Positions 6,898-51,288 of a DNA stretch of 61,243 nt are shown here, in pieces. This DNA is from a virus (Duplodnaviria; Caudoviricetes). Under the pieces are notes generated by a model, which worked only from the letters and a program-made list of their open reading frames with translations, was not told the origin of the DNA and ran no database searches. The position numbers were made by a program, and so were the translations under genes. Each line of letters starts with the position of its first letter. Positions within the stretch are counted from its first letter, which is position 1. The stretch is from IMG/VR virus record IMGVR_UViG_3300036850_000032, positions 1 through 61,243 of that record; one strand, given 5' to 3'.

Positions 6898-7343
6898 CAG
6901 AAGAGGAACTTGAAAATGTTCCCGTCTGAGTCTTTCGCGATGCCAAAGCCGTGGCGTGTCCCGGCACCCGTGACGAACTCCAGTTGGACGGTACGGCCGG
7001 TGGCGCACGTGGCTAGCCCTTGGCCCGGATTCTGGCTACCGCCGGGCGACACCGTGAGCGCGGACAGGTAAATGGCGCCGTATTCAGACATCAGACTGCC
7101 GCTCGTGTAGCCGACACCGGAGCCCGCGGCCGACGCCCAGCGGCCGACACACGCATCGGCAGGAGGCAGGGTAAAGGTCAGCTTGCCTGAGCCGCCGAAC
7201 ATGACGCCATCGGCCTTGACGTTGATGACCGGCGCGGGGCGGGTGAGACTCATGGGACCTTCAACGGGTATCATGGTGGCATGGAGTGAGCAGCCCGCGA
7301 GCGCGGCCGTGAGGACGATGACGGCGAATAGTCTGCGGGTCAT
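6897..7343 (-). CDS. lipoprotein in immunity/integration region (superinfection-exclusion candidate)
   Basis: MTRRLFAVIVLTAALAG|C lipobox; co-oriented with cI and int. Confidence 0.75.
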   Translation of the reverse strand: MTRRLFAVIVLTAALAGCSLHATMIPVEGPMSLTRPAPVINVKADGVMFGGSGKLTFTLPPADACVGRWASAAGSGVGYTSGSLMSEYGAIYLSALTVSPGGSQNPGQGLATCATGRTVQLEFVTGAGTRHGFGIAKDSDGNIFKFLF

Positions 7344-15208: not shown

Positions 15209-15471
15209 CGTGGAACATGCGCAGCGAATCGTTCGAAGCGGGTGCGCGGCGACGTTTCTGGGCACGTGTCCAGAAGTCTGAAGACGGATGCTGGCTTTGG
15301 ACTGGCCTCAAGGACAAGGACGGCTACGGTGTGTTCGCCTACAAGTATCGGAATCACCGACCGCATCGTCTGGCATTCCAATGGGAACACGGGCCGATCG
15401 TCGGCATCGTACGTCACTCGTGCGATACACCAGCCCGTATGAGCGAACAGACGAAAGAAAAGAACGACTAG
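15205..15471 (+). pseudogene. truncated HNH endonuclease
   Basis: FWARV.K..DGCWLWTG...DGYG.F...HRLAF...GPI..VRHSCDTPA, then diverges before the CVNPxHL catalytic half. Confidence 0.7.
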
Positions 15472-15547
15472 TGGTCGTGACCATCACCGAAGTGCCCTAC
15501 CCGATGACACAGAGCCGGAGTGATTGCGGAGCAAACGGAACCATCTG

Positions 15548-15733
15548 ATGACCAAGACGTTCTGCGATCGCTGCGGGAAAGAGGGGAAGGTGGACAGCAT
15601 CCGCATGCCCAAGATCGGGCCGGCTGCCTCGGGGTGGGTCTACGCCGCAGTTGAACTGTGTAGCGAGTGCTGCCATGACATCGCGTATTACCTGGCTCAG
15701 GCGCCGCCAGAGAAGAAAGGCGACGGTCGCTGA
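15548..15733 (+). CDS. small zinc-finger protein
   Basis: CDRCG...ELCSEC. Confidence 0.6.
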   Translation: MTKTFCDRCGKEGKVDSIRMPKIGPAASGWVYAAVELCSECCHDIAYYLAQAPPEKKGDGR

Positions 15734-16185
15734 TGTTCTGCCCATGTCCGAAACCGCCGCCTCGCGTGAAGGTGCCGAAGGTTGGCCCGACCGCCCGCAG
15801 ACGGGCGCAGAAAGCCCGTGTGGTGACGCTGGCGGAACGCGCAGTGAAGAGCCTAGTCAAGGATATGGACGGCCGGAGATGCCGCTGGCCGGACTGCGAG
15901 GTGCCGCCGTTGTCATTCTGGGGTCAACTCCAAGCGGCGCATTACAAAGCCGAAGGGATGGGCGGCGATCCGAACCTCGTGCGCTGCACGGTGGACAACA
16001 TGCTGGCCGCATGTCGCTGGCATCACAGGGGGCCGAGAGGGTTGCATTCAGGGCTCGCGAAGATGGAGCCGTTGACCGAGCTCGGGACACGCGGGCCGGT
16101 GCAGTTCTCAGTAATGGAGCGTGGTGAGGGTGGCCGATGGAGCGTTATTGGCGTGACGAGTCCGCCGAAGGAGTGGAGCGAATGA
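15733..16185 (+). CDS. HNH-like Zn-binding nuclease (NinG/Ref-like)
   Basis: V..MDG.RC..PDC...AAH...GMGG...N....C..HH. Confidence 0.6.
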   Translation: MFCPCPKPPPRVKVPKVGPTARRRAQKARVVTLAERAVKSLVKDMDGRRCRWPDCEVPPLSFWGQLQAAHYKAEGMGGDPNLVRCTVDNMLAACRWHHRGPRGLHSGLAKMEPLTELGTRGPVQFSVMERGEGGRWSVIGVTSPPKEWSE

Positions 16186-17068: not shown

Positions 17069-17273
17069 CCACGTTTGTGCTCGTCTGCGGCTGTCGCGCG
17101 GTGCCCTCGGGACATCCCGCAGGACGGTGGCGGCAACAGGGTGTTGTCGGGGAAGTGGGATCTTCCCGCGAGCACAATTCAGAACGACGACGATGAGGGG
17201 TAGCGACCGTCACCGATGTGTCCTACCCAGTGACACAGAGCCTGAGTCATCTTGGAGCGAACGGAGTCACCGA

Positions 17274-17960
17274 ATGACGATCGGTACAAAGAGTGTTCTC
17301 TACGGCGCGCACTGTTTCTTCCTGCATCCGTGGTTCGTCGCTGCGGCATGGTGGCAGCTGTACGGCTTCCCGTGGGACCCGCGCCTCTGGGTCGCGTTCT
17401 TCGTGCATGACCTCGGCTACATCGGGAAGCCGAACATGGACGGGCCGGAGGGCGAGACGCATCCGCTGCTCGGCGCTCGGATCATGGGTCGGCTGTTCGA
17501 TCGACTTCGAAACGGCGGACGCCCCATTCGCGGCGTTCCACAGGATCTCTCTCAGTGGTTCGTCATAAGGGACGGCGAGTGGCTGGGTCGCTGGGCTCGA
17601 TTCTCCCTGCTGCATTCCCGGTACTACGCGAAGACGCTCGGCCTGCAACCGTCGCGACTCTGCATCGCTGACAAGCTCGCGATTGCGCTGACGCCGGCGT
17701 GGCTCTACCTGCCGATGGTGCGCGCGACCGGAGAGATCCACGAGTACATGGCGCACGCGCACTATCGATCGAAGGGCAACGAAGCCCTGAGCGCCGACGA
17801 ACGTGCGCGTGTCACCTCCGGGCGTGAGCGCGATTGGTATACAGGCGTGCAGTCGTACTGCCGGCGCTGGGCGACGGAACACGCCGACGGCAAGCGCGAC
17901 ACCTGGACGTCCGATGCTCGACAGCGAGCAAAGGTCAACTCGGACGGCGTTTGGAAGTAA
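17274..17960 (+). CDS. HD-domain-like phosphohydrolase
   Basis: H...H, VHDLGY, H, LLHSR, CIADKLA metal-ligand pattern. Confidence 0.6.
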   Translation: MTIGTKSVLYGAHCFFLHPWFVAAAWWQLYGFPWDPRLWVAFFVHDLGYIGKPNMDGPEGETHPLLGARIMGRLFDRLRNGGRPIRGVPQDLSQWFVIRDGEWLGRWARFSLLHSRYYAKTLGLQPSRLCIADKLAIALTPAWLYLPMVRATGEIHEYMAHAHYRSKGNEALSADERARVTSGRERDWYTGVQSYCRRWATEHADGKRDTWTSDARQRAKVNSDGVWK

Positions 17961-24654: not shown

Positions 24655-25200
24655 ATGTCAGACAAGCCGCTGACGCCGAAACAGGCGCGTTTCGTGGCCG
24701 AATACCTCATTGACCTGAACGCGACCCAAGCCGCGATCCGTTCCGGGTACAGCGCGAAGACCGCGGCTGAGCAAGCTTCCCGCTTGTTAACCAATGTCAA
24801 GATTGCCGAAGCGGTCGCCATAGGCCAAGGCGCTGCGCTCAGAGCCGCTGGTGTGACCGCTGAGCGGGTCATGCTGGAGGCTGCACGTCTGGCCTTTTCC
24901 GACGTGCGCGGCCTTTTTGACGCGGAGACAGGCCGACTACTGGATGTGTCCGCGCTGAGTGAGGATATGGCGCGGGCGGTGGCCTCCGTTGAGGTGTTGC
25001 GCGAGAAGTCCACCCGGCGCGTCGGCGAGGATACCGAGACAGACACTCAAGAACAAGTGATGAAAATCCGCGTGTGGGACAAGCCGCGCAGTCTGGAGCT
25101 GCTCGCGCGGTGCCTCGGAATGCTGAAGGATAGGGTGGAGCACGGCGGCTCAATCGCGTTCATCAAGAAAATCGAGCATGTCCACGAGCCCGGCGCCTAG
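24655..25200 (+). CDS. terS: terminase small subunit
   Basis: LTPKQARFV.EYLIDLNATQAAIR.GYS.KTA...ASRLL; IA/LAFSD; K...DK..LELL. Confidence 0.93.
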   Translation: MSDKPLTPKQARFVAEYLIDLNATQAAIRSGYSAKTAAEQASRLLTNVKIAEAVAIGQGAALRAAGVTAERVMLEAARLAFSDVRGLFDAETGRLLDVSALSEDMARAVASVEVLREKSTRRVGEDTETDTQEQVMKIRVWDKPRSLELLARCLGMLKDRVEHGGSIAFIKKIEHVHEPGA

Positions 25201-26608
25201 CGATACCTGTCGCATGATTTGGCGCGGGAAGCACTCTGGCGCCCTCCTTGATACCACCACGCGCGAACTTGACATCGAAGGCGCCGTGCGCGCCGGCAAG
25301 ACTACCGTCTGCCTCTGGCGTGAACTGAACGCGTGTCTGGAACATCCTAGTATCTACGGTCTCCTAGCGCGGTGGACAGACACCGGCGTGTATGGGCTGG
25401 TGCTCCCCATCTGGCGCCGCATCTGCGAACAAGCTGGCGTCGCACTGAAGTGGCATCCCGATGAGGAGTACGACGAGCTGCCCAATGGTAGCCGCATGTA
25501 TGTGCGCGGGTTGAAAAGCCAGGACGCCACGCTGCGCTACAGCAAGTTCCGCGGGCTGACGCTCTCGAGAGTGTACGTGGATCAGGCTGAGGAAGTGCCG
25601 CAGGACGTGTATCTTGAACTGGCCGCGCGTCTCAGCCAAGCCGGATTCCCCCATCAGATCACGATTTCGCCGCAGTCGGTCGCGAATGACCACTGGATTG
25701 CCAAGGAGTTTCCCGAGGATAACCGCTTCCTGCCGCATCGCCGACTGCTGCAGTTGTCCGTGTACGACAACGCGCACAACCTTAGTGACGAGGTCATTCC
25801 GGCCCTGAAACGGCTGTATCCGCCTGAGCATCCTCAACATCGGACGCTGCTGCTGGGCTTGCGTGGGCTCAACGTCATCGGGGAGCCGGTCTACAAGGGC
25901 GCGTTTGTGCGGGCGATCCACGAGGCGACGGCTGAGTATGATCCGTCGCTGGCGCTCGAAATGGCCTTGGACTTCGGCAAGCACCACCCCTGCGCGGTGT
26001 TCCGCCAAGTGTCAAGCCTCGGCCAAGTGCGGTATCTGGGCGGGATTCTGGGCCAACAGCTGTATCTAGATGACTTTCTCGACATCGTGTTGCAGTATCG
26101 GGCGCAGTGGTTCCCGCAGCCGGTGGAACTCCGGGAGTGTATGGATCCGGCTGGGGCTGCGGACACCTCCCACGGGACGGATGGCGCGATTGTGACGCTG
26201 CGCAAGCGCGGGATGAAGCCGGTCTATGTGGAGGGGGCCAACTCGCCCGCGGTCCGCTTGGCGATGGTGGAACGGCTGGCAAGCCTGATGCGGAAGCGGG
26301 CCGCCAACCGGCAGGAGGCCCTGATCGTGAGCAATTCTGAGCGCTGGCTGAGGATTTCGGAGCAAGCGACGTTGGTGGATCGGTTCGTGGCGGATGCGTT
26401 CGAGGCGGGCTACGTCTGGGATCAGCACATGGTCTCAGTGGGGTCAAAGCAGATGCGCAAGCCGAAGAAGGACGGCTGGTATGAGCACGGGATGAACTGC
26501 TGCGAGTACCTGGAGTGCAACTTTGGCTCCGCGCCGCCGGTCAAGGAGCCCCCGAAGCGGGAGAAGCGGCCCCCGTTACAGGCGGGCCGTCAAGGGTGGA
26601 TGGCCTAA
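25178..26608 (+). CDS. terL: terminase large subunit
   Basis: Walker A GAVRAGKT, Walker B VYVDQAEE, nuclease LDFG..HP, DPAG; follows terS. Confidence 0.9.
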   Translation: MSTSPAPSDTCRMIWRGKHSGALLDTTTRELDIEGAVRAGKTTVCLWRELNACLEHPSIYGLLARWTDTGVYGLVLPIWRRICEQAGVALKWHPDEEYDELPNGSRMYVRGLKSQDATLRYSKFRGLTLSRVYVDQAEEVPQDVYLELAARLSQAGFPHQITISPQSVANDHWIAKEFPEDNRFLPHRRLLQLSVYDNAHNLSDEVIPALKRLYPPEHPQHRTLLLGLRGLNVIGEPVYKGAFVRAIHEATAEYDPSLALEMALDFGKHHPCAVFRQVSSLGQVRYLGGILGQQLYLDDFLDIVLQYRAQWFPQPVELRECMDPAGAADTSHGTDGAIVTLRKRGMKPVYVEGANSPAVRLAMVERLASLMRKRAANRQEALIVSNSERWLRISEQATLVDRFVADAFEAGYVWDQHMVSVGSKQMRKPKKDGWYEHGMNCCEYLECNFGSAPPVKEPPKREKRPPLQAGRQGWMA

Positions 26609-26918: not shown

Positions 26919-27164
26919 GTGGCGAAATCGGAGCCCACACACGAGTCCGTCTCGGTTCGACTCCCGCGTGGGTTGTGGGCGCGGGTACGGAGGCGGTCGT
27001 TTGATGAGCGCGTGCCGGCGTCGGTGCTCGTCGGGTTGGCAGTTGAGCGATGGCTGGCGAGCGTCGAGCAGTCGCCCGCGCGTCGAGCGCCCGTTGATGC
27101 TCAGGTGAAGGTTCGGCAGACGACCATGGAACCGGGCGGCTACACCTACGAGCCGGAAATCTGA
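26919..27164 (+). CDS. ribbon-helix-helix regulator
   Basis: ESVSVRLPRGLWARVRR.SFDE..PAS.LV..AVE.WL. Confidence 0.65.
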   Translation: MAKSEPTHESVSVRLPRGLWARVRRRSFDERVPASVLVGLAVERWLASVEQSPARRAPVDAQVKVRQTTMEPGGYTYEPEI

Positions 27165-27610
27165 TGGCTGGCCGCGGTTGGAAGCGGGTCGACGTAGAAA
27201 CCGCCAACTACGGTGGCCTTTATGCCATCTGTGAGGGGAGACGCGTAGTTTACATTGGGCAATCGTCGATGCTTTCACGGCGGCTGGCCGCGCACGCCTA
27301 CTTTCGAGCTACGAGTCGCGATGTCCGATGGGTGAAAGCGTGCGTGGTCGAGGACCGTGGAGAGCGAGAGGTGGCCGAGGAACGTCTCATCAGGAGACTG
27401 TGCCCACCACTAAACCTCGCCCTTAACGCGCGTCGGCGGCAACAACATGACGATCCAGAAACGAGCCGATTCGCTGCTGAAGTGACGAAGCAACAAGCCC
27501 TCCGGATCGACCCGGCCCTATGGCGTCGTGCTCGCATGAAGGCGATCATGGACGGGCACTCCATGAACACCGTGGTGCAGGAGTTGCTGATGATGTGGTT
27601 GGACGAGTGA
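27164..27610 (+). CDS. GIY-YIG nuclease fused to C-terminal RHH domain
   Basis: GLYAI...VVYIGQS..L.RRL..H...E..LI..L.P.LN; LRIDPALWRRA...A..DG.SMN.VV.ELL..W. Confidence 0.7.
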   Translation: MAGRGWKRVDVETANYGGLYAICEGRRVVYIGQSSMLSRRLAAHAYFRATSRDVRWVKACVVEDRGEREVAEERLIRRLCPPLNLALNARRRQQHDDPETSRFAAEVTKQQALRIDPALWRRARMKAIMDGHSMNTVVQELLMMWLDE

Positions 27611-27907: not shown

Positions 27908-28315
27908 ATGGCGGAGACCTTCGATCAACAACTCGCCCGGTTGCGTTCGCTCGCTGCCATCGAACTGGATGACGATCCGATGGACCCTATCGGCGTGGCG
28001 GATCAAGCTGCCCTCGCGGAACTGCTCCGCCGCTGGGATGCGATCCATGCGCCCAAAGTACCGCGTCCGTGGACGGCTGACGAGATGCGCGTGGCTGAGT
28101 GCGATGCGCGCCGGATCCTCTCGCAGTACCCGCCGACGATAGATGGTGCGTCTCAGGCAACGAGTTCAGCTGAGTGGCGCCAGCATCCCGTGTTGCAAGG
28201 CAAGGCAGCCATCATGAATACGATGAACGAGAAGGCCGTCGAGTTCTGCGCGCTGGTCGATCTGGTGACGGCCCCAGCTTCATTCCCGGCGTATATTGCG
28301 ATCGATCCGCGTTGA
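27908..28315 (+). CDS. protein sharing a domain with ejection protein 50152-51288
   Basis: ARRILSQYPPTIDGASQATSSAEW vs AGRILSRYPATSQGVRQAMQDPEW, 13/24 identical. Confidence 0.65.
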   Translation: MAETFDQQLARLRSLAAIELDDDPMDPIGVADQAALAELLRRWDAIHAPKVPRPWTADEMRVAECDARRILSQYPPTIDGASQATSSAEWRQHPVLQGKAAIMNTMNEKAVEFCALVDLVTAPASFPAYIAIDPR

Positions 28316-28340
28316 CACCGGCACCAGTACACCCTAGCAT
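28312..28340 (+). promoter_or_regulatory. sigma70-like promoter
   Basis: TTGACA-N17-TAGCAT. Confidence 0.6.
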
Positions 28341-28357
28341 GAGGGAGATTCCAGACC

Positions 28358-28609
28358 ATGAAAGTCTTGCGCTTGTTGATCGTCTTGCGCTGGTGGTTGC
28401 CACTGGTATTCATGCTCGGTGTCCTGTGTAGTCTTGGCGCGTGTCACACCAATTACGATCCTGATCAGCATCCTGACGGGGTGTACGCACATAACATCGT
28501 CATTCGTGACGTGCAGGGCGAGTGTTGGCGTGTACTTGTTCTGTCGAGCAAACATACCTATCTGGAACATCTCAAGCCCGAAGCGTGCGAACGGCGGACC
28601 GAGCGATGA
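28358..28609 (+). CDS. putative lipoprotein
   Basis: Basic N-terminus, hydrophobic core, SLGA|C lipobox; GGGAG RBS. Confidence 0.6.
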   Translation: MKVLRLLIVLRWWLPLVFMLGVLCSLGACHTNYDPDQHPDGVYAHNIVIRDVQGECWRVLVLSSKHTYLEHLKPEACERRTER

Positions 28610-28649
28610 ACAGGCGATCGTTTCTGCCAGCAGCATAAGGGAGCATCCC

Positions 28650-28919
28650 GTGAACAAAACGTGGAGCGATGTGGAAGAGGCAGCGATGGGGCGCCCCTGG
28701 ACTGACGCCCCGTTTTTGACGCTCGCCTCGCCTTATCGTGCGCTGTTTCATCAGGCGGTAACGATGGTCGAACTCGGCCAGATGACACGCGAAGAGGCGC
28801 TGATTGCCCTCTCGCTCGCGCTGCTGGATGGTAACGAGCGCCAGCACGCGGAACTAGTTGACGCCTACAACCGCCGTCCGCCCGCGCCGATCATTCTACA
28901 GGGGATCTCCCATGAATAG
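28650..28919 (+). CDS. hypothetical protein
   Basis: AAGGGAG RBS, GTG start. Confidence 0.5.
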   Translation: MNKTWSDVEEAAMGRPWTDAPFLTLASPYRALFHQAVTMVELGQMTREEALIALSLALLDGNERQHAELVDAYNRRPPAPIILQGISHE

Positions 28920-29232
28920 GCGATCATTTCTCCTGTCGGTGGCGGCGGTACCCCTCGCGACCGTGAGCGTGCGGCAGTCGGTGCGTCCGCGCTCAGCCTC
29001 GCGGCGCATCATTGACGGCGTCACGGCCGACGAGCGGAAGGCGCACGCGATGCGGGTGCTCGTCCATTACCCGGCGACGTTAGCGGGTCTCCGTGCAGCG
29101 TTTCACTCAAAGGAATGGGGCTCTGATCCTTGGCTGCGCGATGCGTGGCTGGATGGACGGCGCGGTATTCTGACGTGGCCAGACGGCTTCGCGGCCGATC
29201 TGCTGATGCCGTGGGGTCAGGACGCGCAGTGA
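28912..29232 (+). CDS. Tat-signal protein, paralogue of an ejection-protein domain
   Basis: MNRRSFLLSVAAVPLA twin-arginine motif; 18/41 identities to 50686-50808. Confidence 0.7.
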   Translation: MNRRSFLLSVAAVPLATVSVRQSVRPRSASRRIIDGVTADERKAHAMRVLVHYPATLAGLRAAFHSKEWGSDPWLRDAWLDGRRGILTWPDGFAADLLMPWGQDAQ

Positions 29233-29552
29233 CTCCTGAAGTCCGCGCTGCGCTCGGTGTCACGGCGCTTGCCATCCTCGCCCGCTATGCCCCTCCCCCA
29301 CTAGATGTGCAGGAGTTCCGCCGCCGTGCCGCCTTGGAAGGCGATCAGCGAGTCGCCGCCAAGCGGAACTACGAACTGAATCAGAGCGTGCTACAGGCCA
29401 TGAACGATCCGGAGTGGAAGCGGCATCCGGTCCTGCAGCGGGCGTTTTTCGATGCGGCGAACGCGCGGATCCAGGTGGATGACTGGTCGTTGGAGGTGAT
29501 TGCGTGGGCGGATCGGCTGGCGGCCATCGGACAGGAGCCAGTGAAGTCGTGA
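29229..29552 (+). CDS. third member of the ejection-domain paralogue family
   Basis: ILARY...VLQAMNDPEWKRHPVLQRAFF vs ILSRY...VRQAMQDPEWLADADLSRATF. Confidence 0.6.
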   Translation: MTPEVRAALGVTALAILARYAPPPLDVQEFRRRAALEGDQRVAAKRNYELNQSVLQAMNDPEWKRHPVLQRAFFDAANARIQVDDWSLEVIAWADRLAAIGQEPVKS

Positions 29553-29803
29553 GTGCTCCCAAGTCCAGTGGTCGCACGGTTGACGATTACGAGTGGCTGC
29601 ACCTTGCGGCCCTCATGATGCGCGACGGACGCACGCAGGCAAACCTGAATGAACTGGAGGCGCGTCGTTACAGGCAGTGCAGAATAGCCGAAGACGCCGA
29701 CGTGCAACGAATCCTCCATGTCCCGGACGCGCGATGCCCTTTGCAAGAGCCGCACTTCCCGCACGAATGCGGACGGCGTTTTGATCTGGGTGGGTTCAAG
29801 TGA
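29549..29803 (+). CDS. hypothetical protein
   Basis: GTGA overlap; C...H..H.C. Confidence 0.45.
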   Translation: MSAPKSSGRTVDDYEWLHLAALMMRDGRTQANLNELEARRYRQCRIAEDADVQRILHVPDARCPLQEPHFPHECGRRFDLGGFK

Positions 29804-30024
29804 GCGTCTGTCCACGGTGCGGGGCCGATCGACCCGCGAAGTGTCCGGCCTTTTTCCAAGTTCACAGAGACAACGGCACGGGAACTGAGTACGTGTGCAG
29901 TTTGCCGGAAGATCATTCATGGCCGCATCGGGCACTGCACGCGAAGACAGGCGCGGTCGTGGCATCATGGGGATTTACGCCAGGCAACGCAGTGAATGGG
30001 ACGGTGGCCGCGATTCATGGCTAA
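29800..30024 (+). CDS. small Cys/His protein
   Basis: CPRC...C...H..PH. Confidence 0.5.
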   Translation: MSVCPRCGADRPAKCPAFFQVHRDNGTGTEYVCSLPEDHSWPHRALHAKTGAVVASWGFTPGNAVNGTVAAIHG

Positions 30025-30508
30025 CCTCTCCATCCCCCCTGACTTCCAGACGTTTGCCCAGCAGCTGGCGGCGCGTTCTTCGGACGGGATCGAGCAGTTC
30101 CGTCAGCATATCCTGTCCGATGATCTGCTGCTCTGTGAAGTCGTCGCCGGCGGGAAGTTTACCTGGATGCGTGAGTTTTTCAACTACACGCGGGCCAACG
30201 GGTTCGTTGCCCCGACCGACGTGGGCGAGCAGTTGTACGTCCACTTCTGCGAGCAGGTCCGGCGCCGCTTCAATGCCGGCGAGACGGATCCCAAGAAGGT
30301 GGCTGGGATGGTGCTGGACAAGGCCGAGGTGAAGACACCTCTGACGGAACTGGAGAAGGATCGGAGCTGGAAGATCGAGACGGAAGCCTCAGAGGACGGG
30401 TTCCGCTCGCGGTATGGTCCAGCGGGCGATCCCAATGCGGAACTGGACAAGGTAATGGACCGGGGGCGAACGGTGGCGCCGATCGTGGTGAAGACAGACA
30501 AGGAGTAG
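30017..30508 (+). CDS. hypothetical protein
   Basis: 163-aa ORF with phage-like composition. Confidence 0.6.
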   Translation: MANLSIPPDFQTFAQQLAARSSDGIEQFRQHILSDDLLLCEVVAGGKFTWMREFFNYTRANGFVAPTDVGEQLYVHFCEQVRRRFNAGETDPKKVAGMVLDKAEVKTPLTELEKDRSWKIETEASEDGFRSRYGPAGDPNAELDKVMDRGRTVAPIVVKTDKE

Positions 30509-32625: not shown

Positions 32626-32765
32626 TCCTCTCAGTGACGCGGACTAATTACCCGCGCTAAAGGCACTCCCGAGCCGCACTGAGGAGGAACAACGGGACAC
32701 GACAGCACGGGGCTGTGTGACGACTCTGCGATGACAGAGGCGCTTACACAGCCCCTTTTGTTTTG
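32626..32765 (+). ncRNA. structured intergenic RNA/leader ending in a terminator-like hairpin
   Basis: Multi-stem TCCTCTCAGTG...CACTGAGGAGGA enclosing CGCGG-ACTAATTAC-CCGCG; long stem GGGGCTGTGT...ACACAGCCCC followed by TTTTGTTTT. Confidence 0.5.
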
Positions 32766-32787
32766 TCCCGACTTTTTGGAGGCCGAC

Positions 32788-33355: not shown

Positions 33356-35755
33356 GTGGCTGAAGGCGCTGATCTCGACATCCGCCCCGCCCGTTCGGTG
33401 CAACTCGTCACCGCTGGCCGGGACGTGTCTCCCGAGGATCAGCGAGACAGCAAAGCCGCCGAAGCGGAGCGCCTCCGCAAGCAAAAGCTTGTGGAGGAAG
33501 GCATCCGCCGCTGGAAAGCCTGCTCGGAAGCCGAAGCCAAGCAACGCCAGCGCGAGAAAGAGGATCTGGAGTTTGCCCGCGCGCTCCCCGAAGATCAGTG
33601 GCCCGAGGAACTGCTCAGAACCCGTGCCGGCGGGACGATCAACGGCATCGTGACGGCGGCGCGTCCCTGCCTCGTCATTCCCAAACTCAATGCCCCAGTT
33701 GATCAGACGGTCAACGAAGCGCGCAATGCCCGACTGAGTATCCGGGTCAAGCCCAAGGGGCAATTCTCGAACAAGAAGGGCGCCCAACTCCGCCAGGAGA
33801 TGATCCGTGCGATCGAGGTGGACAGCAACGCCACCCAGCCGCGGCTGTGGGCACTCAACCGAGCCGCCATCTGCGGCCGGGGCTGGTATCGCGTCGTGAA
33901 GGAGTACGCCGCCGATGGCGACTTCCTGATCGATCTCGTCACGAAGGGCATTCCGAATCAAGGCTCGGTCTACTGCGATCCCTTCGCGAATGAACCAGAC
34001 AAGTCCGATGCCGAGTTCATGTTTGTGACCTCGGACTTCGCGCCAGCCGAATACAAGCGGCGGTTTCCGAAGAGTGAACTGGCGGAGTCAAGCGCCGATG
34101 GCGACCTGTTCTCCACGACGGCGGATCTGCCTTTGGATTGGGTGAACGAGAAGCATTTCCGGGTGGCGGAGTACTTCTACGTTGAGCACAAGGATCGCAT
34201 CCTGATCGAAACCCCGCTAGAGCTCGGCGGCAAGCATCGTTTCGCGGATGAACTCCCGCCCGAGTTGCAAGCGGCCATCCCGAAGGGCATCAAGACGCGT
34301 ACCGTCGACCATCGCACCGTCCGCTGGTGCCTGATGAACGCCGTCGAGATCCTCGAGGAAGAGCAGTGGGAAGGCCGGACGATCCCGATCATCCCCGTGG
34401 TCGGCTCTGTCTCCAATGTGGAAGGCGAGTGGGTCTACAAAGGCATCGTCAGCAACGCCAAGGATGCCCAGCGCTCGTACAACTACGGCCGTTCAGCGCA
34501 AGTCGAGAGTGTCGGACTCGCCCCGCGCGCGCCGTGGGTCATTGCCGAGGGGCAAGTGAAGGGCTACGAGGACGTGTGGGAGCAGGCGAATACCTACGGC
34601 GGCAATTACCTGCCGTATGTGCCCACGAGTCTGGAAGGCCAGCCCGTTCCCCCGCCGCAACGCAATACCGTCGAGCCTGCTATCCAGGCGATCACTTTGA
34701 TGGTGCGCGAGGCGGACAACGACATCAAGGCCACGACAGGCCGGTACGATCCCAGTCTCGGCAATCTCGATCCGAACGCCCGTTCGGGCAAAGCCCTCAA
34801 GGAACTAAAACAGCAGGGCGAGCTCGGCTCCAGTCACTTCCTGGACAACCTCGCCAACGTGTCGATGCGGCGGGAAGCCCTGATCTATCTGGAGATGCTC
34901 TATCCGGTCTATGGCACGACACCGGGCCGGATCGCGCGGTTGCTCGGCGAGGAAGAGGAAGACGCCCGCGAAGTGATGCTCGGCAAGCCATTCGTGCCCG
35001 ATGAGGACGGCCGTCCAGTCGAAGCGCCGGCGGATCATCCCGCCGCCCAGCGCTACGAGCTGGACGAAGACGGCGAATACGCCGTGGTGGTGAGTGTCGG
35101 CAAGTCCTCGCAGACGCAGCGGGAAGACAACGCGGAACTGCTCAAGTCCATCTTTGAAGCGGCTCCGCAAGTCGCCGAGGCTGGCGCGGACATCTTCGTG
35201 GAGCAGTTGGAAGGCCCGGTCGCGGAACGGCTCGCTAAGCGCTTACGGAAGCTCAATCCGGCCCTCGCCGATGAGGACGAGAGCGGAGCGAAGCCGCCGG
35301 TCGATCCCGCGATGCAGCAACAACTCCAGCAGCTGCAGCAGGCGAATCAGCAGTTGGAAACCTCGCTGAAGCAAACCGTCGAGGAACTGAAGACGCAGAA
35401 GGCAGCCGCGGACGCTGAGGCCCAAGTCAAGCGCGAGGAGATTCAGGCCAAGGCCCAAGCCGCGCAGGCGGAGCAGGCCGCGAAGCAGCAGACCGCGCAG
35501 ATGGAACTGGAAGCCAAACAGCGTCAGTTTGAGGCGGAACTCGCGGCGAAGCGCGAGATGTTTGCAATGGAGCTGGCGAGCAAGAAGGAACTGGCGCTGC
35601 TGGAGATGGAGAACGATCTTCGCAAGGCGCAGATCGCATCGGATGCGAAGGCGCAGCAGTTGGAGATGCAGGCACAGGCCGCGCGCGAGTCACAGGTGCG
35701 GGATCAGGCGTTTCAGGCAGTGAGTGAGAAGCCGGAGATGGGAGCAGGCGCGTGA
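33356..35755 (+). CDS. P22-like portal protein
   Basis: RPCL.I.KL, CG.GW.RV, V..DP....D.SDA, VAEYF, G.V...KD.QR.YNY, SGKAL...QQG...F.DNL, long C-terminal helical barrel. Confidence 0.92.
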   Translation: MAEGADLDIRPARSVQLVTAGRDVSPEDQRDSKAAEAERLRKQKLVEEGIRRWKACSEAEAKQRQREKEDLEFARALPEDQWPEELLRTRAGGTINGIVTAARPCLVIPKLNAPVDQTVNEARNARLSIRVKPKGQFSNKKGAQLRQEMIRAIEVDSNATQPRLWALNRAAICGRGWYRVVKEYAADGDFLIDLVTKGIPNQGSVYCDPFANEPDKSDAEFMFVTSDFAPAEYKRRFPKSELAESSADGDLFSTTADLPLDWVNEKHFRVAEYFYVEHKDRILIETPLELGGKHRFADELPPELQAAIPKGIKTRTVDHRTVRWCLMNAVEILEEEQWEGRTIPIIPVVGSVSNVEGEWVYKGIVSNAKDAQRSYNYGRSAQVESVGLAPRAPWVIAEGQVKGYEDVWEQANTYGGNYLPYVPTSLEGQPVPPPQRNTVEPAIQAITLMVREADNDIKATTGRYDPSLGNLDPNARSGKALKELKQQGELGSSHFLDNLANVSMRREALIYLEMLYPVYGTTPGRIARLLGEEEEDAREVMLGKPFVPDEDGRPVEAPADHPAAQRYELDEDGEYAVVVSVGKSSQTQREDNAELLKSIFEAAPQVAEAGADIFVEQLEGPVAERLAKRLRKLNPALADEDESGAKPPVDPAMQQQLQQLQQANQQLETSLKQTVEELKTQKAAADAEAQVKREEIQAKAQAAQAEQAAKQQTAQMELEAKQRQFEAELAAKREMFAMELASKKELALLEMENDLRKAQIASDAKAQQLEMQAQAARESQVRDQAFQAVSEKPEMGAGA

Positions 35756-37229: not shown

Positions 37230-38624
37230 ATGAGACATCATGCCTATGATTCCGATCCTCCGCGTTCTCGACTCGCACTGATTACCTGGCTCGCTCTCGC
37301 GGTCTGCGTGACGGCGGCGAGTCTGGTCCTCAGTCACTACACGTCGGACTGGTCCGGCGTGCTCGCGCTCAATACCCTCATCACCCCGACGTGGGTCATG
37401 CGTGAAGTCGGCCGGCTGCTCGTCAACAATCTGAAGTTCTCCGCGAACGTCAGCCGCAGTTACGACAGCCAATACAAGCGCATGGGCGCGAAGGTGGGCA
37501 ACACGGTCAATGCCCGTCTCCCCTTCCGGCCGCGCGTCTCCAAGTCGCAGGCGATCAACATCCAGTCGGTGGCGGATCAGATCGTCCCGATCACCCTCAC
37601 CGATCAGGCCAACACCGCCGTGGACTTCTCCACGATGGAAGAGACCACGCAGGTCGATGACTACCGGAGTCGCTACATCCAGCCCGGCGTTGAGTCCCTC
37701 GTCAACACGATGGATGCCGATGGCCTCAACCGGATGTATAAGGCGACGTTCTGGACGGTCGGCACACCCGGCACCGTGCCAGGCTCCACCGGCACCAACC
37801 CGCAAGCCGCCTATCTCACCTATCTGCAAGCGGGCGTGAAGCTCTCGAACAGCGCGGTTCCGCCGGATGGACGCATTGCCGTGTTGAACCCCAACATGCA
37901 CGCGTACCTCGCGGCTGGCGGCCTGACGATCTTCAACCCGCAGGCGCAGATGAGCAAGGTGTATCGCTCAGGGCAGTTCAGCGGGCATGCGCTGGGCTTC
38001 TCGGCGTGGTACGAAGATCAGAACGTGTTCCCGCACGTCATCGGGACGGCGACGGGCACGCCGCTCATCAACGGGGCGTCGCAGACCGGCTCCAGCATCA
38101 TCACCGATGGCTGGACGGCGAGCGTCACGATCCTGCTGCAGGGCGATGTCATCCAGTTCGCGGGCGTCAACGCCGTGAACCCGATGTCCTACCAGAGCAC
38201 GGGGCAGTTACAGGATTTCGTGGTCACGGCGGATGTCACCTCGGACGGATCGGGCAATGCGACCATCCCGGTCTACCCCGCGCTCACCACGAGTGGGCAG
38301 CTCCAGACCGTGACCGGTTCGCCCGCGAACAACGCCGCGATCACCGTGTTCGGGACGGCGCAAGCGGGTCTCGCGGCGCAGGCGGGCATCACCACGCCGC
38401 AAGCGCTGATGTATCACCCCGACGCGTATGCGCTGGTCATGGCGGATCTCGTGCTGCCGAAGGGCTTGTGGATGAGCGAGCGGATCTCCAGTGAGGAACT
38501 GGCGGTCTCGGTGCGCTTCCTCAAGCAATACGACATCATGACCGACCTGTCGGCGGCGCGCGTCGATGTGCTCTACGGCTGGAAGGCCGTGAGACCAGAG
38601 ATGGGGGCCAGGCTCGCAGCCTGA
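37230..38624 (+). CDS. P22-like major capsid (coat) protein with N-terminal hydrophobic extension
   Basis: NTLITP.W..RE...L.NNL.F...V.R.YD, G.KVG.T...R.P, DD...RYI.P, I-domain GDVI.FAGV.AVNP, QYDI..D....R.DVLYG...VRPE. Confidence 0.93.
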   Translation: MRHHAYDSDPPRSRLALITWLALAVCVTAASLVLSHYTSDWSGVLALNTLITPTWVMREVGRLLVNNLKFSANVSRSYDSQYKRMGAKVGNTVNARLPFRPRVSKSQAINIQSVADQIVPITLTDQANTAVDFSTMEETTQVDDYRSRYIQPGVESLVNTMDADGLNRMYKATFWTVGTPGTVPGSTGTNPQAAYLTYLQAGVKLSNSAVPPDGRIAVLNPNMHAYLAAGGLTIFNPQAQMSKVYRSGQFSGHALGFSAWYEDQNVFPHVIGTATGTPLINGASQTGSSIITDGWTASVTILLQGDVIQFAGVNAVNPMSYQSTGQLQDFVVTADVTSDGSGNATIPVYPALTTSGQLQTVTGSPANNAAITVFGTAQAGLAAQAGITTPQALMYHPDAYALVMADLVLPKGLWMSERISSEELAVSVRFLKQYDIMTDLSAARVDVLYGWKAVRPEMGARLAA

Positions 38625-45050: not shown

Positions 45051-45797
45051 ATGACAGCAGATGACATTTCTACGCGGGCGTTGCGGCTGATTTCAGTCTA
45101 TGAGGCCAGCGAAACGCCTCCGAATGCGGATCTGGCTGAAGCCTTCGTTGTGCTCAATGAGTGGGTCGGCGAGCTGGGCACGTTGTCACCGACGATGTAT
45201 TTCCTGCTCCGTACCTTACACGTGTTGGCGAGCGGAACCGCGAGCTACACCATTGGGGCGGGGGGTACCATCAACATCCAGCGACCGACGTTTCTCCCGA
45301 AGGGCAACGCCAAGCTGATCATCGACAACACGGCGGCGGCGACGAGCATTACCGAAGTGCCGTTGGACGTGTTTACCGATCAGGAGTGGAAGGACATCCC
45401 GCAGAAGGGCTTCCAATCCTCGCAATCGCAAGGGATCTGGTACGACCACAACTGGTCCGCGGGGTTGGGCCGGATCTACCCGTGGCCCATTCCGAACGTC
45501 GCCACCACCACACTGGTGCTCTACACCATGCAAGCGCTCGCGGCCTTCGCGGATCGGAACACGACAGATTACACGTTCCCGCCGGGGTATGCGCGGGCGA
45601 TCCGCTACAACCTCGCGGTGGAGCTCGGGCCGATCTTCGAGCGGGACGTGCCGCCGCAGGTGGAACGCATCGCGATCAAGTCTCTCGCGGACATCCAGCG
45701 TGCGAACTTCCGCAAGACCTCGGCGGGGATGGATCCGGCGTTGTCCTGGAACTGGCGCGGCTCGGCCTATGCGATTCGCAGTGACACATTCAGATAA
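45051..45797 (+). CDS. head completion / P22 gp4-like adaptor
   Basis: D...RAL.LI.V...E.P...LN.W; FPPGY..A..YNLA.EL.P. Confidence 0.7.
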   Translation: MTADDISTRALRLISVYEASETPPNADLAEAFVVLNEWVGELGTLSPTMYFLLRTLHVLASGTASYTIGAGGTINIQRPTFLPKGNAKLIIDNTAAATSITEVPLDVFTDQEWKDIPQKGFQSSQSQGIWYDHNWSAGLGRIYPWPIPNVATTTLVLYTMQALAAFADRNTTDYTFPPGYARAIRYNLAVELGPIFERDVPPQVERIAIKSLADIQRANFRKTSAGMDPALSWNWRGSAYAIRSDTFR

Positions 45798-47278
45798 TGG
45801 CCCGCTACCCCGCGTTTGTCGGCGGCTCCTACGTCTCGCAAAGTCCGATTGCGGATCAGCAGAGAACCGTCTGTTTTTACGTTGAGCGCTTGGAAGTTGA
45901 AGGTGGCAAGGCGCGCATGGTGCTGTACCCGTCGCCAGGCGTCGAAGCCTTCACGGCTGAGTTTGAACTCGCCCCAGCTCGAGGAAGCTTTTACCAGAAC
46001 GGCCGCTGTTTCTTCGTCATTCGCGATCGGCTCGTAGAAGTGTTTGACGATGGCACTCTGAACGGACTCGGCTCGGCCGGTCAGATGGTGCTGGATGGCT
46101 ACCCGGTGACCATGTCCGCCAATGGGGACGGCGGTGGCGAGTTGTTCATTACCACGGGCAACAACGGCTACATCTTCGATCTCCTCCTCAACTCCCTGGC
46201 GATTGTGCGCACCGGAGCGACGACTCAGGGCGGGATGCTCGACGGCTATTTCATCGCGCTCGACGCCGCGACATCCACGTTCTTTCTCTCGGATTTGCTG
46301 GATGGGACGACGTGGGATCCGACGCAGTTCGCGCAACGCACGATCGCCCCGGATGCGTGGGTCGCGATGACGGTGATGGACACGGCGCGGCAGTTGTGGC
46401 TGTTCGGGGATGAGACCTCGGAAGTCTGGTACAACGCCGGCACGTTCCCGTTTCCGTTCGCCCCGCATCCCTCGGGATTGATTCCGTTCGGCATCGCCGC
46501 GCGGTCCTCGCCGAAGAACGTCGGCGGTGCGCTGATGTGGCTGTCTCGCACGAAGGGCGGGAGTGGGCAAGTCATCAGAGCAGACGGGTTGAATGCGCGC
46601 GTGGTGAGCACCTACCCGATGGCGGTCGCGTTTGAGCGGTATCTGAGCACCTACGGACAGATGGCGCTGGATGATGCGGTCGGTGATGCGTTCGAATGGA
46701 TGGGGCACTGGTTCTACGTGCTGACCTTCCCCACGGCGAATGGGACATGGGTCTATGACCGCTCAACGGAAACATGGGTGGAGTGGCTGACGTGGATCGC
46801 GAATGAGAACCGCTACACCGGCTGGCGTCCGCTGTTTCATGTCAATGCGTTCGGTCAGCACTTGGTGGGCGATCGGCTGAGCGGGACCGTGTATCGGCTG
46901 GACGCCACGATCGGCACCGATGTCGCGGGCTTGCCGATTCGTCGGGTGCGCCGTGCCCCGGCACTCTCAATGGAAGGGCAGCGGATTTTCTACTCCAGTT
47001 TGGAGCTGTGCTTGGAGCCGGGCCTCGGCCTGAACAGCGGGCAGGGCTCGGATCCGCAGGTGATTCTCTATTTTTCTGATGATGGCGGAAAGACCTGGAA
47101 ATCGGCAGGCCAGCGCTCAGCCGGTCGCATGGGTGAGTATCAAACACGTGTGATTTGGAACCGGCTGGGCAGTTCAAGGGACCGCGTTTTCGAGGCAGTT
47201 GTTACCGACCCGATCCCCTGGCGCTACATTGACTGCTTTCTGACCGCGAAGCCTGGAATGTCTCGGAGAGTGGCCTAG
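45797..47278 (+). CDS. P22 gp10-like tail hub (packaged DNA stabilisation) protein
   Basis: DGYFI, LWLFG..T.EVWYN.G, GH.FYVLTFP, DPQV.L..SDDGG.TW, G..GEY.TRV.W.RLG.SRDRVF. Confidence 0.88.
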   Translation: MARYPAFVGGSYVSQSPIADQQRTVCFYVERLEVEGGKARMVLYPSPGVEAFTAEFELAPARGSFYQNGRCFFVIRDRLVEVFDDGTLNGLGSAGQMVLDGYPVTMSANGDGGGELFITTGNNGYIFDLLLNSLAIVRTGATTQGGMLDGYFIALDAATSTFFLSDLLDGTTWDPTQFAQRTIAPDAWVAMTVMDTARQLWLFGDETSEVWYNAGTFPFPFAPHPSGLIPFGIAARSSPKNVGGALMWLSRTKGGSGQVIRADGLNARVVSTYPMAVAFERYLSTYGQMALDDAVGDAFEWMGHWFYVLTFPTANGTWVYDRSTETWVEWLTWIANENRYTGWRPLFHVNAFGQHLVGDRLSGTVYRLDATIGTDVAGLPIRRVRRAPALSMEGQRIFYSSLELCLEPGLGLNSGQGSDPQVILYFSDDGGKTWKSAGQRSAGRMGEYQTRVIWNRLGSSRDRVFEAVVTDPIPWRYIDCFLTAKPGMSRRVA

Positions 47279-47967
47279 ATATGCTTCCAATTGCGTCGTT
47301 GTCTGATTGCGTCGATCGTGCTCTTATGCACGTCGTAACGAGCCGCCACAACGTGCGCTGGCCAGCGACTCGCGCGGATCGCGAGCACATCTGCCGTCGC
47401 CAGCTTGGCATGATTGTTTCGTTCTCCGCGAGCCTTCAGGCCGGTCTTGGCCGCGTGTTGATGGTTTTGTTGCGGAGTGACGTACTCAAGGTTATCGAGT
47501 CGGTTGTTCTGCTTGTTGCCGTCTTTGTGGTTGACTTGATGGCCGGCTGGTTCTGGGCCAAGAAAGGCCAGAGCAACCAAACGATGAATACGCACGACTT
47601 TCGACTGGCTGTGTTTCGACAATTCAAGGGCGCTATACCCTCTCCTGAGATGAGGTTTGAGCGTTGGCCTCGGCAGGTAGCGGCATGCACGGCGAACGTT
47701 GCCAGCATCCGACACTTCATACAGATGTTCGTACCCAGCGATAGGGGCTGGACGCCACTGTTCAGGTGTGTCTGGGACAACCGGCACATCGTTCGGATCA
47801 TCGATGTGTTTCCAAGAGCGACGAGAGCGAATGCACCAAATGGCCGCGATTCCCACGCTGTAACGTTCGGCCAATATCTTCTGTGGTTCGGGGCTGCGGC
47901 GAATGGCTCTGATATCTTGTTCCGTCAACTTCGAAGTACCTACTTGGCTGCCTTGAGCGTGTTTCAC
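47275..47967 (-). CDS. NUMOD4-HNH homing endonuclease with duplicated HTH-like domain
   Basis: EQWRP...GYE..YEVSD.G.VR (NUMOD4); HRLVA.AF, VNHKDG.K.NN...NLEY (HNH). Confidence 0.88.
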   Translation of the reverse strand: MKHAQGSQVGTSKLTEQDIRAIRRSPEPQKILAERYSVGIAAIWCIRSRRSWKHIDDPNDVPVVPDTPEQWRPAPIAGYEHLYEVSDAGNVRRACRYLPRPTLKPHLRRGYSALELSKHSQSKVVRIHRLVALAFLGPEPAGHQVNHKDGNKQNNRLDNLEYVTPQQNHQHAAKTGLKARGERNNHAKLATADVLAIRASRWPAHVVAARYDVHKSTIDAIRQRRNWKHI

Positions 47968-48009
47968 ACCACAAAGTTTAACCTCACCAACATTGAGGCA
48001 CAAGCTTAA

Positions 48010-50152: not shown

Positions 50153-51288
50153 TGGCGTGGCGTGACGAACTCTACAACCCGTATCGCGAAAGCGTGCAGC
50201 GTCTGCGGCTGCCGAGTCGTCCGTCGACGCTGGCCAACTGGCGCGATCCGACGCAATTCAGGACACTGATTTCAGACGAGGGGAACTCGCCGCCTGGAAC
50301 CACCCCGCCGCCGCCGACCACGCCGCCTGGGAACACGACTCCTCCGCCCAACCCGCCGAACCGCAACGACCCGAGCACCTCGCGGAATGCCCCTCGCCTG
50401 ATTCAAGAAGGCGATCGGTGGATTCTAACCGAGCATGGGAATCGGCGTGTCCTGCAGCCCGACGAAGTGCCCGGCGCGCAAGCGTACGTGGATGATTTCT
50501 GGCGACAGTTCCCGACCGGATTCCAACCAGGTCAAGGCCCGCAGACCAACGAAGGGTATGGGCCGCCCGGAGAAAACACGCCACCGCAAGGCGGGCGCCG
50601 TGTAGGACTGACGGGGCGTGAGCAGTTCGATCCCACGGCTGGCTTCGATTTGGACAACTTCAATGATCTGACCAATCAGAATTTGAAGTACCGCGCCGGC
50701 CGTATCTTGTCGCGGTATCCGGCCACTTCACAAGGTGTTCGTCAAGCCATGCAAGATCCCGAGTGGCTGGCGGATGCGGATCTGTCGCGGGCCACGTTTA
50801 ACGGCCGCGATCGTATTCACTTCCACGGGGCGCTCAGTGACGGAGAGTCAGGCGTTCCGGTCAATGAAGTCGATGTCCTCCGCTCCAATCAAGAAGATGG
50901 CAGCTCAGTTGGCCTCTGGTGGGGCGATCAGGATGCGATGGGCTATGGGAGCGGCGCACCGCCCACGACACCGACGACACCGACAACACCGACGACCGGC
51001 GGCGGTACGCGCGTGCTTCCGGATGGCACGATCGAACGTCCGGCTCAAACCATCCCAGAAGAGGGCACGCCGTTCCCCGGCGGCGGGAATCGGCCAATGG
51101 GCAATCTGTCAGGGATGCGCGATCCCGCCACTGTCTTTGGCGCGCAAGGGGCCTCAGTGGTAGGCAGCAATGCCCCGCAGCAGCCGCAGATTTCTCAAGA
51201 GCCCTATCGCAAGCTCGTCTCGCCGCTTGGGGATGGCCTGATGCCCCTGAATGAGTATGCGTGGCTCGGTCGCCGGAGGACGGCGTAA
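50152..51288 (+). CDS. putative ejection/internal virion protein
   Basis: TGATG-coupled within the ejection cluster; low-complexity ends with a central globular domain. Confidence 0.6.
   Translation: MAWRDELYNPYRESVQRLRLPSRPSTLANWRDPTQFRTLISDEGNSPPGTTPPPPTTPPGNTTPPPNPPNRNDPSTSRNAPRLIQEGDRWILTEHGNRRVLQPDEVPGAQAYVDDFWRQFPTGFQPGQGPQTNEGYGPPGENTPPQGGRRVGLTGREQFDPTAGFDLDNFNDLTNQNLKYRAGRILSRYPATSQGVRQAMQDPEWLADADLSRATFNGRDRIHFHGALSDGESGVPVNEVDVLRSNQEDGSSVGLWWGDQDAMGYGSGAPPTTPTTPTTPTTGGGTRVLPDGTIERPAQTIPEEGTPFPGGGNRPMGNLSGMRDPATVFGAQGASVVGSNAPQQPQISQEPYRKLVSPLGDGLMPLNEYAWLGRRRTA

Follow-up and report, generated by a model that had tools for sequence, protein, structure and literature searches.

The stretch of DNA analysed here, called the window in the following, is the complete IMG/VR virus record IMGVR_UViG_3300036850_000032 (61,243 bases, linear; CheckV completeness 84%) and, because of the gene set it encodes (integrase, terminase, portal, coat and internal virion proteins), belongs to a temperate, podovirus-like phage. 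On its plus strand, between the terminase and the head genes, lie three small open reading frames (ORFs), P0001 (27908-28315), P0002 (28912-29232) and P0003 (29229-29552), which, as judged from their alignments, are real paralogues of the central domain of P0004 (50152-51288, plus strand), a protein encoded in the internal-virion module of the same phage. P0002 begins with a twin-arginine-type leader, and so does P0155 (32788-33354, plus strand), which carries a segment of the coat protein. Among the readings that we weighed, superinfection exclusion by mimicry leads, tentatively, as the role that the small copies might have.

Three small ORFs share a segment with P0004

The preliminary description of this DNA had regarded the three ORFs as clustered paralogues of the central domain of P0004, and pairwise E-values, shuffles and family matches agree with it. 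P0004 residues K179-R219, which correspond to 50686-50808, are identical to P0002 at 18 of 41 positions upon recounting, an alignment that BLASTP extends to 19/50 (E 1e-7). The reported identities of P0001 (13/24; BLASTP E 9e-5) and P0003 (8/10 over VLQAMNDPEW, extended to 13/26, E 5e-5) were likewise recovered, as was the insertion that had been noticed in the latter. The motifs said to be common to P0001 and P0003 (EW..HPVLQ) and to P0001 and P0002 (TADE) are seen in translations and alignments. Among the small ORFs, BLASTP aligned P0001 with P0002 (E 2e-6) and with P0003 (E 7e-5), and gave no direct alignment of P0002 with P0003 at E<=100. When Smith-Waterman scores were compared with 1000 shuffles per pair, the observed score was reached by none of the shuffles for P0002-P0004, P0001-P0004, P0003-P0004 and P0001-P0002, by one for P0001-P0003 and by 22 for P0002-P0003. 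Five of the six possible pairs among the four proteins meet in one and the same segment.

Six-frame searches of the 61-kb record led to P0004 from P0002 (E 1.2e-5), P0003 (2.2e-3) and P0001 (9e-3), and connected P0002 to P0001 (1.5e-3) and P0001 to P0002 (4e-3); no fifth copy of the domain was found in these searches of the whole record. An all-against-all comparison of 930 frames yielded three non-overlapping pairs at E<=1e-3, the top two being P0155 with the coat protein and P0002 with P0004. The weaker pairs were found at E 0.03-0.08 (P0001-P0004 0.05, P0003-P0004 0.03), with noise starting from about 0.006. Because these single pairs lie at the border of the noise, the case for P0001 and P0003 rests on the convergence of the pairs and on the matches to the wider family.

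An unnamed domain family of internal-virion modules

P0004 (378 aa) is rich in Pro, Gly and Thr and its full domain spans residues ~164-260 (50641-50931). A word-indexed search recovered five relatives, in which exactly the stretch that is matched by the small ORFs is conserved. We built a family profile from eight segments (P0004, four relatives and P0001-P0003) and scanned it against 1.84 billion representatives, which gave 161 proteins at E<=1e-3, 64 at <=1e-10 and one at <=1e-30; the hidden Markov model search that the preliminary description had proposed, run with these eight segments, in this way recovered a family of 161 clusters. The domain is an alpha/beta domain of ~90 aa, and the proteins that contain it are nearly all 200-400 aa long and located in internal-virion modules (150 family proteins, P0005-P0154: range 200-660 aa, median 287 aa, two of the 150 at <=140 aa). 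A shared Pfam family was found in none of the 60 members scanned and a PHROG match likewise in none of the 60; the domain is unnamed in Pfam, PHROGs and NCBIfam.

For residues 164-263 of P0004, AlphaFold2 (78 aligned sequences) predicted four short helices followed by a three-stranded sheet (pLDDT 91.2, pTM 0.83). A Foldseek search of this domain against the PDB gave no matches at E<=1e-3 (best 2.4), and the best hit of a sequence-profile search of the PDB had an E of 0.92. The sole match in BFVD was A0A6J5SVL9 (TM 0.82, 40% identity, E 9.5e-8), itself a family member, which is labelled 'DUF4214 domain-containing protein' (663 aa) and comes from an uncultured Caudovirales phage. Whatever the function of the small copies, the family and its compact fold deserve naming (161 clusters, no similar solved fold).

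The neighbours of P0004 (49250-50152 and 51261-53570) match phrog_598 'DNA ejection' (E 4e-4 and 6e-12, respectively) and the neighbourhood also matches an internal virion protein. P0011 (659 aa) unites the domain and a homologue of gene 51261-53570 in one polypeptide (35% identity over 235 aa, E 2e-28); the natural fusion in P0011 and P0008 ties together two genes, P0004 and 51261-53570, that are adjacent in the window. The ejection-type module to which P0004 had been assigned is thereby upheld, by the phrog_598 and internal-virion-protein neighbours and by the P0011 fusion, and context and fusion support P0004 as a putative ejection or internal virion protein. A family gene is also found near internal-virion-protein PHROGs in two other viral loci. 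Exactly one copy of the domain is present in each of the five other IMG/VR records that were searched whole (ORFs of 276-395 aa; records 35-61% complete). P0011 and P0008, which come from other samples, share one order of parts: two DUF4214-like repeats, the domain and then the homologue of gene 51261-53570.

Retained parts and age of the small copies

The helical half of the family domain is described by the motif K..A.RIL.RYP.TP.G..QAM.DP(E/D)(W/F) and the beta half by D.IDFGG.LSD...GVPV..VDV ... W.W, with F224, D241 and W257 invariant. The small copies retain the helical half as K..A.RIL.RYP.T..G..QAM.DPEW, with the motif positions kept in all of them. In P0001 (135 aa) this half is found at residues ~55-97, behind an acidic N-terminus and before a short beta-like tail; in P0002 (106 aa) the domain copy covers residues ~34-101; and in P0003 (107 aa) an insertion of ~27 aa between helices 1 and 2 parts the first helix from the second. 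The alignments suggest that, from the beta half, the Asp of VDV (the invariant alignment column D72) is present in P0001-P0003 and the Trp is retained in P0002, and the Gly/Asp-rich hairpin (D.I.F.G.LS....GV.V; F224/G226/S229/G234) is missing or shortened. Alignment by hhalign to the 60-protein family covered 44 columns for P0002 (E 1.1e-3, prob 20%), 38 for P0001 (E 1.4e-4, prob 52%) and 28 for P0003 together with P0103, its homologue from another sample (E 7.4e-5, prob 62%), and all alignments end at or before the hairpin. A profile of 60 long proteins, made without the small ORFs, recovers P0004 (1e-52) and, weakly, P0001 (E 0.007).

The AlphaFold2 model of P0002 (pLDDT 74.9 overall, 84-95 at residues 41-90, residues 1-33 unstructured) contains three helices and three strands of 3 residues each, ordered as in P0004; it is not independent evidence, because the family is present in its alignment. 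A fold search with this model gave no matches at E<=1e-3. For P0001, the ESM Atlas offered no usable match and its Atlas model is of low confidence. The preliminary description had made its case depend on a common fold of the segments: the helical subdomain is shared indeed, and the similarity that can be detected is limited to it, but the beta half seems to be reduced in the small copies.

With the 151 family proteins as BLASTP targets (E<=10), P0001 had 43 matches (best 3.7e-5), P0002 48 (best 3.2e-6) and P0003 45, and these fall at the same position of the family proteins. P0004 ranks third among the family matches of P0002. Because the resident P0004 is not the best match, we consider P0001-P0003 to be old paralogues (25-40% identity) of the Trp-containing subfamily, whose members BLASTP does recover. 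A recent duplication from the resident P0004 was considered and rejected, as other family members score equally well or better. P0103 (109 aa, on a 1314-base contig from another sample) and P0003 share 59% identity from end to end, the ~27-aa insertion included, and P0103 on its own matches the family (E 1e-3); this conservation is counted as a probable sign of selection on the small copy. No homologue of P0001, P0002 or P0155 was found in 5.8 billion clusters or in the scan of 1.84 billion proteins.

P0001-P0003 are recorded gene calls, their exact sequences are present in the protein collection, and their GC3 (0.69-0.74) is similar to that of the terminase and portal genes. The pseudogenising that would have spoken against a role for the copies is not apparent: the frames are intact, the starts are coupled and GC3 is gene-like. 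P0001-P0003 are real genes of small size, set in an accessory block that separates the terminase from the head genes of this soil phage.

Leaders and the coat-protein segment of P0155

Twin-arginine (Tat) signals carry the motif (S/T)-R-R-x-F-L-K near the N-terminus, followed by an uncharged, mildly hydrophobic stretch of at least 13 residues. The N-terminus of P0002 (MNRRSFLLSVAAVPLATVSV, then RQSVRPRSASRR) comprises a twin-arginine motif (N-R-R-S-F-L-L, residues 2-8), 15 uncharged residues (FLLSVAAVPLATVSV; mean Kyte-Doolittle 2.02 over the scored 14-mer) and a basic tail. P0155 has K-R-R-S-F-L-T at residues 3-9. A crude rule (RR-x-[FLIVM]-[LIVMFA] within the first 14 residues plus an uncharged hydrophobic 14-mer) was passed by three of the ORFs opened by 2016 start codons (>=60 aa): P0002, P0155 and a lipoprotein on the minus strand (7343-6897). 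DNA coding for RRSFL occurs at three plus-strand sites (28612, 28918 and 32797), with synonymous differences only; the first site belongs to a 10-codon ORF (28606-28638). A credible twin-arginine leader was found in none of the 150 other family proteins, and no export signal was found in P0001 and P0003.

Of the Tat signal that the preliminary description had given to one of the copies, the twin-arginine-type N-terminus of P0002 stands, but it falls below the curated Pfam and TIGR01409 thresholds. The further suggestion that the diverged copies cover different periplasmic specificities fails for P0001 and P0003, because an export signal is present in just one of the three copies.

P0155 (188 aa) is encoded directly before the portal gene, after a hairpin with a U-run. 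It has a twin-arginine-type leader (MIKRRSFLTALTGLFVVPAVL) and no Pfam match at E<=0.1. Its C-terminal 42 aa (residues 143-184) show 52% identity to a segment near the C-terminus of the coat protein (residues 407-448, 38445-38573; pairwise E 2e-10, or 1e-7 against the whole record). No internal protein similarity of the genome is stronger, and the two best internal similarities each pair a leader-bearing ORF with a virion protein. With the coat copy standing beside P0002, a leader joined to a virion-protein fragment counts as a repeated design; in terms of predicted protein sequences it is a repeated feature of this genome, and occurring twice in one genome it needs explanation.

A side observation concerns the third ORF that passed the rule, a lipoprotein of 148 aa (6897-7343, minus strand) with RR in its leader (MTRRLFAVIVLTAALAGC) and a match to Pfam LPAM_1 below the cut-off (E 0.0023). 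It adjoins the integrase gene, a place that is typical for an accessory gene expressed from the prophage.

Possible functions of the small copies

In the reading that we tentatively favour, the small copies would mimic the helical face of the P0004 domain and compete for the partner of that domain, without exerting its remaining functions. P0002 would be sent to the outer side of the cytoplasmic membrane, or be anchored there, and could thus meet the delivery proteins of incoming relatives and disturb the assembly of their conduit; it is perhaps co-transcribed with a nearby lipoprotein gene (28358-28609) from a promoter-like site (28312-28340). The leaderless P0001 and P0003 might have an equivalent action in the cytoplasm or might exit as folded partners of P0002, and the coat-segment copy P0155 suggests that the phage may have used the same trick more than once. 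We infer the export of P0002 and the exclusion by the small ORFs from protein and gene sequences, and count in their favour the paralogy, the compact fold, the single copy elsewhere, the virion-module context, the probable selection on P0003, the leader and its absence from the other family proteins, the pairing of leader-bearing ORFs with virion proteins in the two best internal similarities, the synonymous RRSFL sites, the promoter-like site, the temperate lifestyle and the precedent of P22 SieA. The predicted complex of the P0004 domain with P0002 residues 31-106 (score 0.02, mark 0.32) has no bearing on binding either way. None of the small ORFs belongs to an exclusion or defence family above threshold in Pfam, PHROG and NCBIfam; PADLOC was not searched.

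Various points weigh against exclusion by mimicry. With respect to the leader, the Pfam model TAT_signal (PF10518) gives P0002 14.3 bits, where the cut-off is 22.7 (E 0.041), TIGR01409 gives no match at E<=1, and an A-x-A site directly after the hydrophobic stretch is absent, so that the leader may be an uncleaved anchor; moreover, two of the three copies are, by their predicted N-termini, without an export signal. With respect to the shared segment, the hhalign probabilities are 20-62% and span merely 28-44 columns, the profile of 60 long proteins without the small ORFs misses P0002 and P0003 in the record at E<=10, and the P0002 model, although the family was part of its alignment, superimposes on the one family member in BFVD over 46 columns (rmsd 1.2 A) at rank 14 only, with an E of 2.5. 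The copies are not nearest to the P0004 of this phage and give no sign of tracking the supposed target, the ejection role of P0004 would itself rest on gene context and fusion, and the genes are found in a late-gene neighbourhood, co-directional with the terminase. The support comes from one metagenomic genome, and we present exclusion as a hypothesis. Finally, one does not expect the coat protein of a short-tailed phage to reach the periplasm, and a coat fragment there would lack an obvious target; the pattern is broader than an ejection decoy, which can explain it only in part.

If interference by mimicry were true, it would constitute a new route to superinfection exclusion, it would provide a signature that can be searched for elsewhere (a leader plus a fragment of one of the genome's own virion proteins), and it would give a lead to the partner and the role of a widespread unnamed domain of phage DNA-delivery modules.

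An assembly role is nearly as likely as exclusion by mimicry. The copies would then be morphogenetic helpers, late and mostly cytoplasmic, that occupy the binding site of the P0004 helical half (on the portal, the neighbouring internal proteins or the coat shell) and so chaperone internal proteins, or set the time, when these are loaded into procapsids; or they would be minor virion components. The leaders of P0002 and P0155 would tether assembly to the membrane or be inactive in export. The position of the genes fits this possibility, between terminase and portal, on the same strand and with overlapping stops and starts, as does that of P0155, which immediately precedes the portal gene and follows a strong hairpin with a U-run; P0001 and P0003 are leaderless, and a copy of a coat segment suits assembly better than a block of entry. 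However, the five other records (35-61% complete) all have one family copy and no small paralogues, no small ORF has a match among the scaffold or chaperone families of PHROGs and Pfam, and the twin-arginine-type leaders, found on just three ORFs of the window, are left unexplained.

A broader view, to which we give clearly less credence, is that the lineage repeatedly made pieces of virion proteins free-standing, and that envelope-directed self-mimics, together with the lipoprotein, jam the entry or the assembly of relatives. Three of these pieces would stem from the helical half of the P0004 domain and one from the C-terminal segment of the coat, two of them carrying twin-arginine leaders, and the leaderless copies would exit via the Tat pathway as folded passengers of P0002.

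That the copies are evolutionary debris, i.e. partial duplicates that illegitimate recombination left behind in a mosaic accessory region and that drift without function, is improbable. Such an origin would fit the 20-base repeat and the 10-codon stump by which the P0002 start is duplicated 306 bases upstream, and also the lack of homologues of P0001, P0002 and P0155 and a region full of ORFs without a family. Nevertheless, the three frames are intact, with coupled starts and a gene-like GC3; the divergence is old (25-40% identity) and yet the motif positions are retained in all copies; P0003 has a full-length, 59%-identical homologue on another contig; and the RRSFL codons of the three copies differ synonymously only.

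Slightly more doubtful still is a role in counter-defence, in which a host immune sensor would recognise the virion domain (and the coat) and the cut-down copies would bind this sensor without triggering it. Defence sensors do recognise conserved structural proteins, two different conserved virion proteins have copies here, and of the domain the copies retain a single surface, the helical half. Against this, searches of Pfam, PHROGs and NCBIfam, though not of PADLOC, gave no defence or anti-defence family, the known sensors of this kind are cytoplasmic, which leaves the leaders unexplained, and early expression would be expected rather than a position beside the terminase.

Chance resemblance of short helical segments without common descent, for which one could cite the noise-border E-values of P0001-P0004 and P0003-P0004 taken singly (0.03-0.05) and the missing direct alignment of P0002 and P0003, is very improbable, given that five of six pairs converge on one segment with scores reached by 0-1 of 1000 shuffles, that each small ORF matches 43-48 of the 151 independent family proteins at the same place, and that P0103, from another contig, matches the family as well (E 1e-3).

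Comparison with known systems

For exclusion by mimicry, the nearest known counterpart is SieA of phage P22, which mediates superinfection exclusion by acting on the ejection proteins gp16 and gp20 (PMC10883804). The two would agree in the temperate podovirus background, in an action in the envelope against the DNA-delivery conduit of relatives, and therewith in the proposed target class and outcome (PMC10883804). SieA, however, is an integral inner-membrane protein without reported likeness to ejection proteins, whereas the putative exclusion factor of this phage is small, bears a leader and is a paralogue of a domain from the virion module; the two are unrelated in sequence (no Pfam or PHROG match).

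Small phage-encoded lipoproteins form another class of exclusion factors, one of which is Llp of phage T5. A surface-exposed lipoprotein involved in exclusion, Ltp, is described for phage TP-J34 (PMC3952083). Ltp and Llp are small phage envelope proteins with export leaders that block entry, and a lipoprotein gene (28358-28609) is located in the same block here, but unlike P0001-P0003 they are not copies of virion proteins of their own phage. To our knowledge, no exclusion protein of the Ltp/Llp type uses a twin-arginine leader. In comparison with Tat signals, P0002 shares RR-x-F-L, the mildly hydrophobic uncharged stretch and a basic c-region, and P0155 shares KRRSFLT and a hydrophobic stretch; both differ by the absence of a clear A-x-A site and by sub-threshold curated scores, and could be uncleaved anchors. 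A0A6J5SVL9 and the 161-cluster family contain the same domain as P0004, complete and leaderless, whereas the small ORFs are truncated (about 105-135 aa).

As far as titles and abstracts tell, exclusion by exported paralogues of virion proteins is not described in the literature searched (exclusion, twin-arginine, ejection protein, periplasm), and a passage search of a 2024 review on exclusion (PMC11436027) gave no mention of decoy, paralog or Tat. Within the same bounds, exclusion by molecular mimicry of virion parts is a mechanism for which no description was found.

The small-ORF block and its flanks

The small ORFs belong to a tightly packed plus-strand series with ATGA/GTGA overlaps of stops and starts, in an accessory region rich in ORFs that match no known family. 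P0001 is followed by an 83-aa ORF (28358-28609) with a lipoprotein-type leader (..LCSLGAC; presumably a lipoprotein by the lipobox rule) and three further cysteines, then by a 10-codon ORF, MNRRSFLPAA* (28606-28638), that overlaps the lipoprotein stop, and by an 89-aa ORF (28650-28919) between the two copies of the 20-base repeat, whose stop overlaps the P0002 start. P0003 has a GTG start that overlaps the P0002 stop, and further packed ORFs follow on the plus strand (29549-29803, 29800-30024 and 30017-30508). The ORFs 28358-28609 and 28650-28919 have no Pfam, NCBIfam or PHROG family.

The lipoprotein gene is placed 251 bases upstream of the P0002 start and is preceded by a sigma-70-like promoter match (TTGACA-17-TAGCAT, 10/12; 28312-28340, plus strand), located in the 42-base gap before the gene. 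The scan found four such sites in 7.1 kb where 1.7 were expected, and reports matches to the consensus only. The lipoprotein may be an o-spanin, a possibility that was considered; no lysis genes were identified near it.

The direct repeat consists of the 20 bases at the P0002 start (28912-28931), which recur in the 10-codon ORF with 18/20 identical, 306 bases apart, and it looks like the scar of a duplication or insertion. The 10-codon ORF as a frameshift leader for 28650-28919 was rejected by eye: there is no slippery heptamer, and the fusion would be without a hydrophobic stretch.

Between the small-ORF block and the P0155 and portal genes, a hairpin (32693-32770, plus strand; -49.6 kcal/mol, z -7.5, 0/200 shuffles) is followed by the U-run UUUUGUUUUG. 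Its sequence and predicted folding make it a likely intrinsic terminator, which a simple terminator scan missed because of the long stem.

The phage genome

The window encodes a tyrosine integrase (5572-7008, minus strand), an Erf-like annealing protein and a replication initiator. On the plus strand follow the large terminase TerL (25178-26608), the portal (33356-35755) and the coat protein (37230-38624, 464 aa), which was assigned by a match to PDB entry 8skg_F, 'putative coat protein' (E 4e-4), and by its position after the portal; a head-closure protein is encoded at 45797-47278. A run of low-complexity genes culminates in a giant ORF of more than 2062 aa (55057-61242, plus strand), which matches internal-virion-protein families and within which the record ends. 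This ORF unites a primase-like PHROG region (residues 975-1198, E 8e-45) with regions of internal virion proteins.

No close relatives of this phage were found in the phage records, viral contigs, metagenome contigs and species genomes searched. DNA similarity to 50,697 phage records gave no match; searches of viral contigs with P0004, gene 51261-53570 and the P0003/P0103 alignment gave no related loci, and neither did two metagenome and two genome scans. Relatives of the portal were found in 54 loci, with an identity of at most 36%, too distant to be informative. Two soil metagenome DNA runs contain short identical contigs at low depth, and one of them is possibly the source sample; no useful joints or variants were seen in these two runs, and no RNA runs containing this phage DNA are listed. 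As to clues on the host, there are no tRNA genes in the window and no host-like Pfam families at its left end.

Some further genes were noticed. An HNH_3/NUMOD4 homing-endonuclease-like gene (47275-48003, minus strand) sits between the head-closure gene and the internal-protein module, on the opposite strand, and a 148-aa ORF (27164-27610, plus strand) has weak GIY-YIG and HicB/Arc-like matches, all under the curated cut-offs. In the all-against-all comparison, two minus-strand frames of the early region (15471-15923 and 17182-17481) shared a stretch of 20 residues that is 70% identical (E 2e-4), a likeness that may stem from a DNA repeat in that region.

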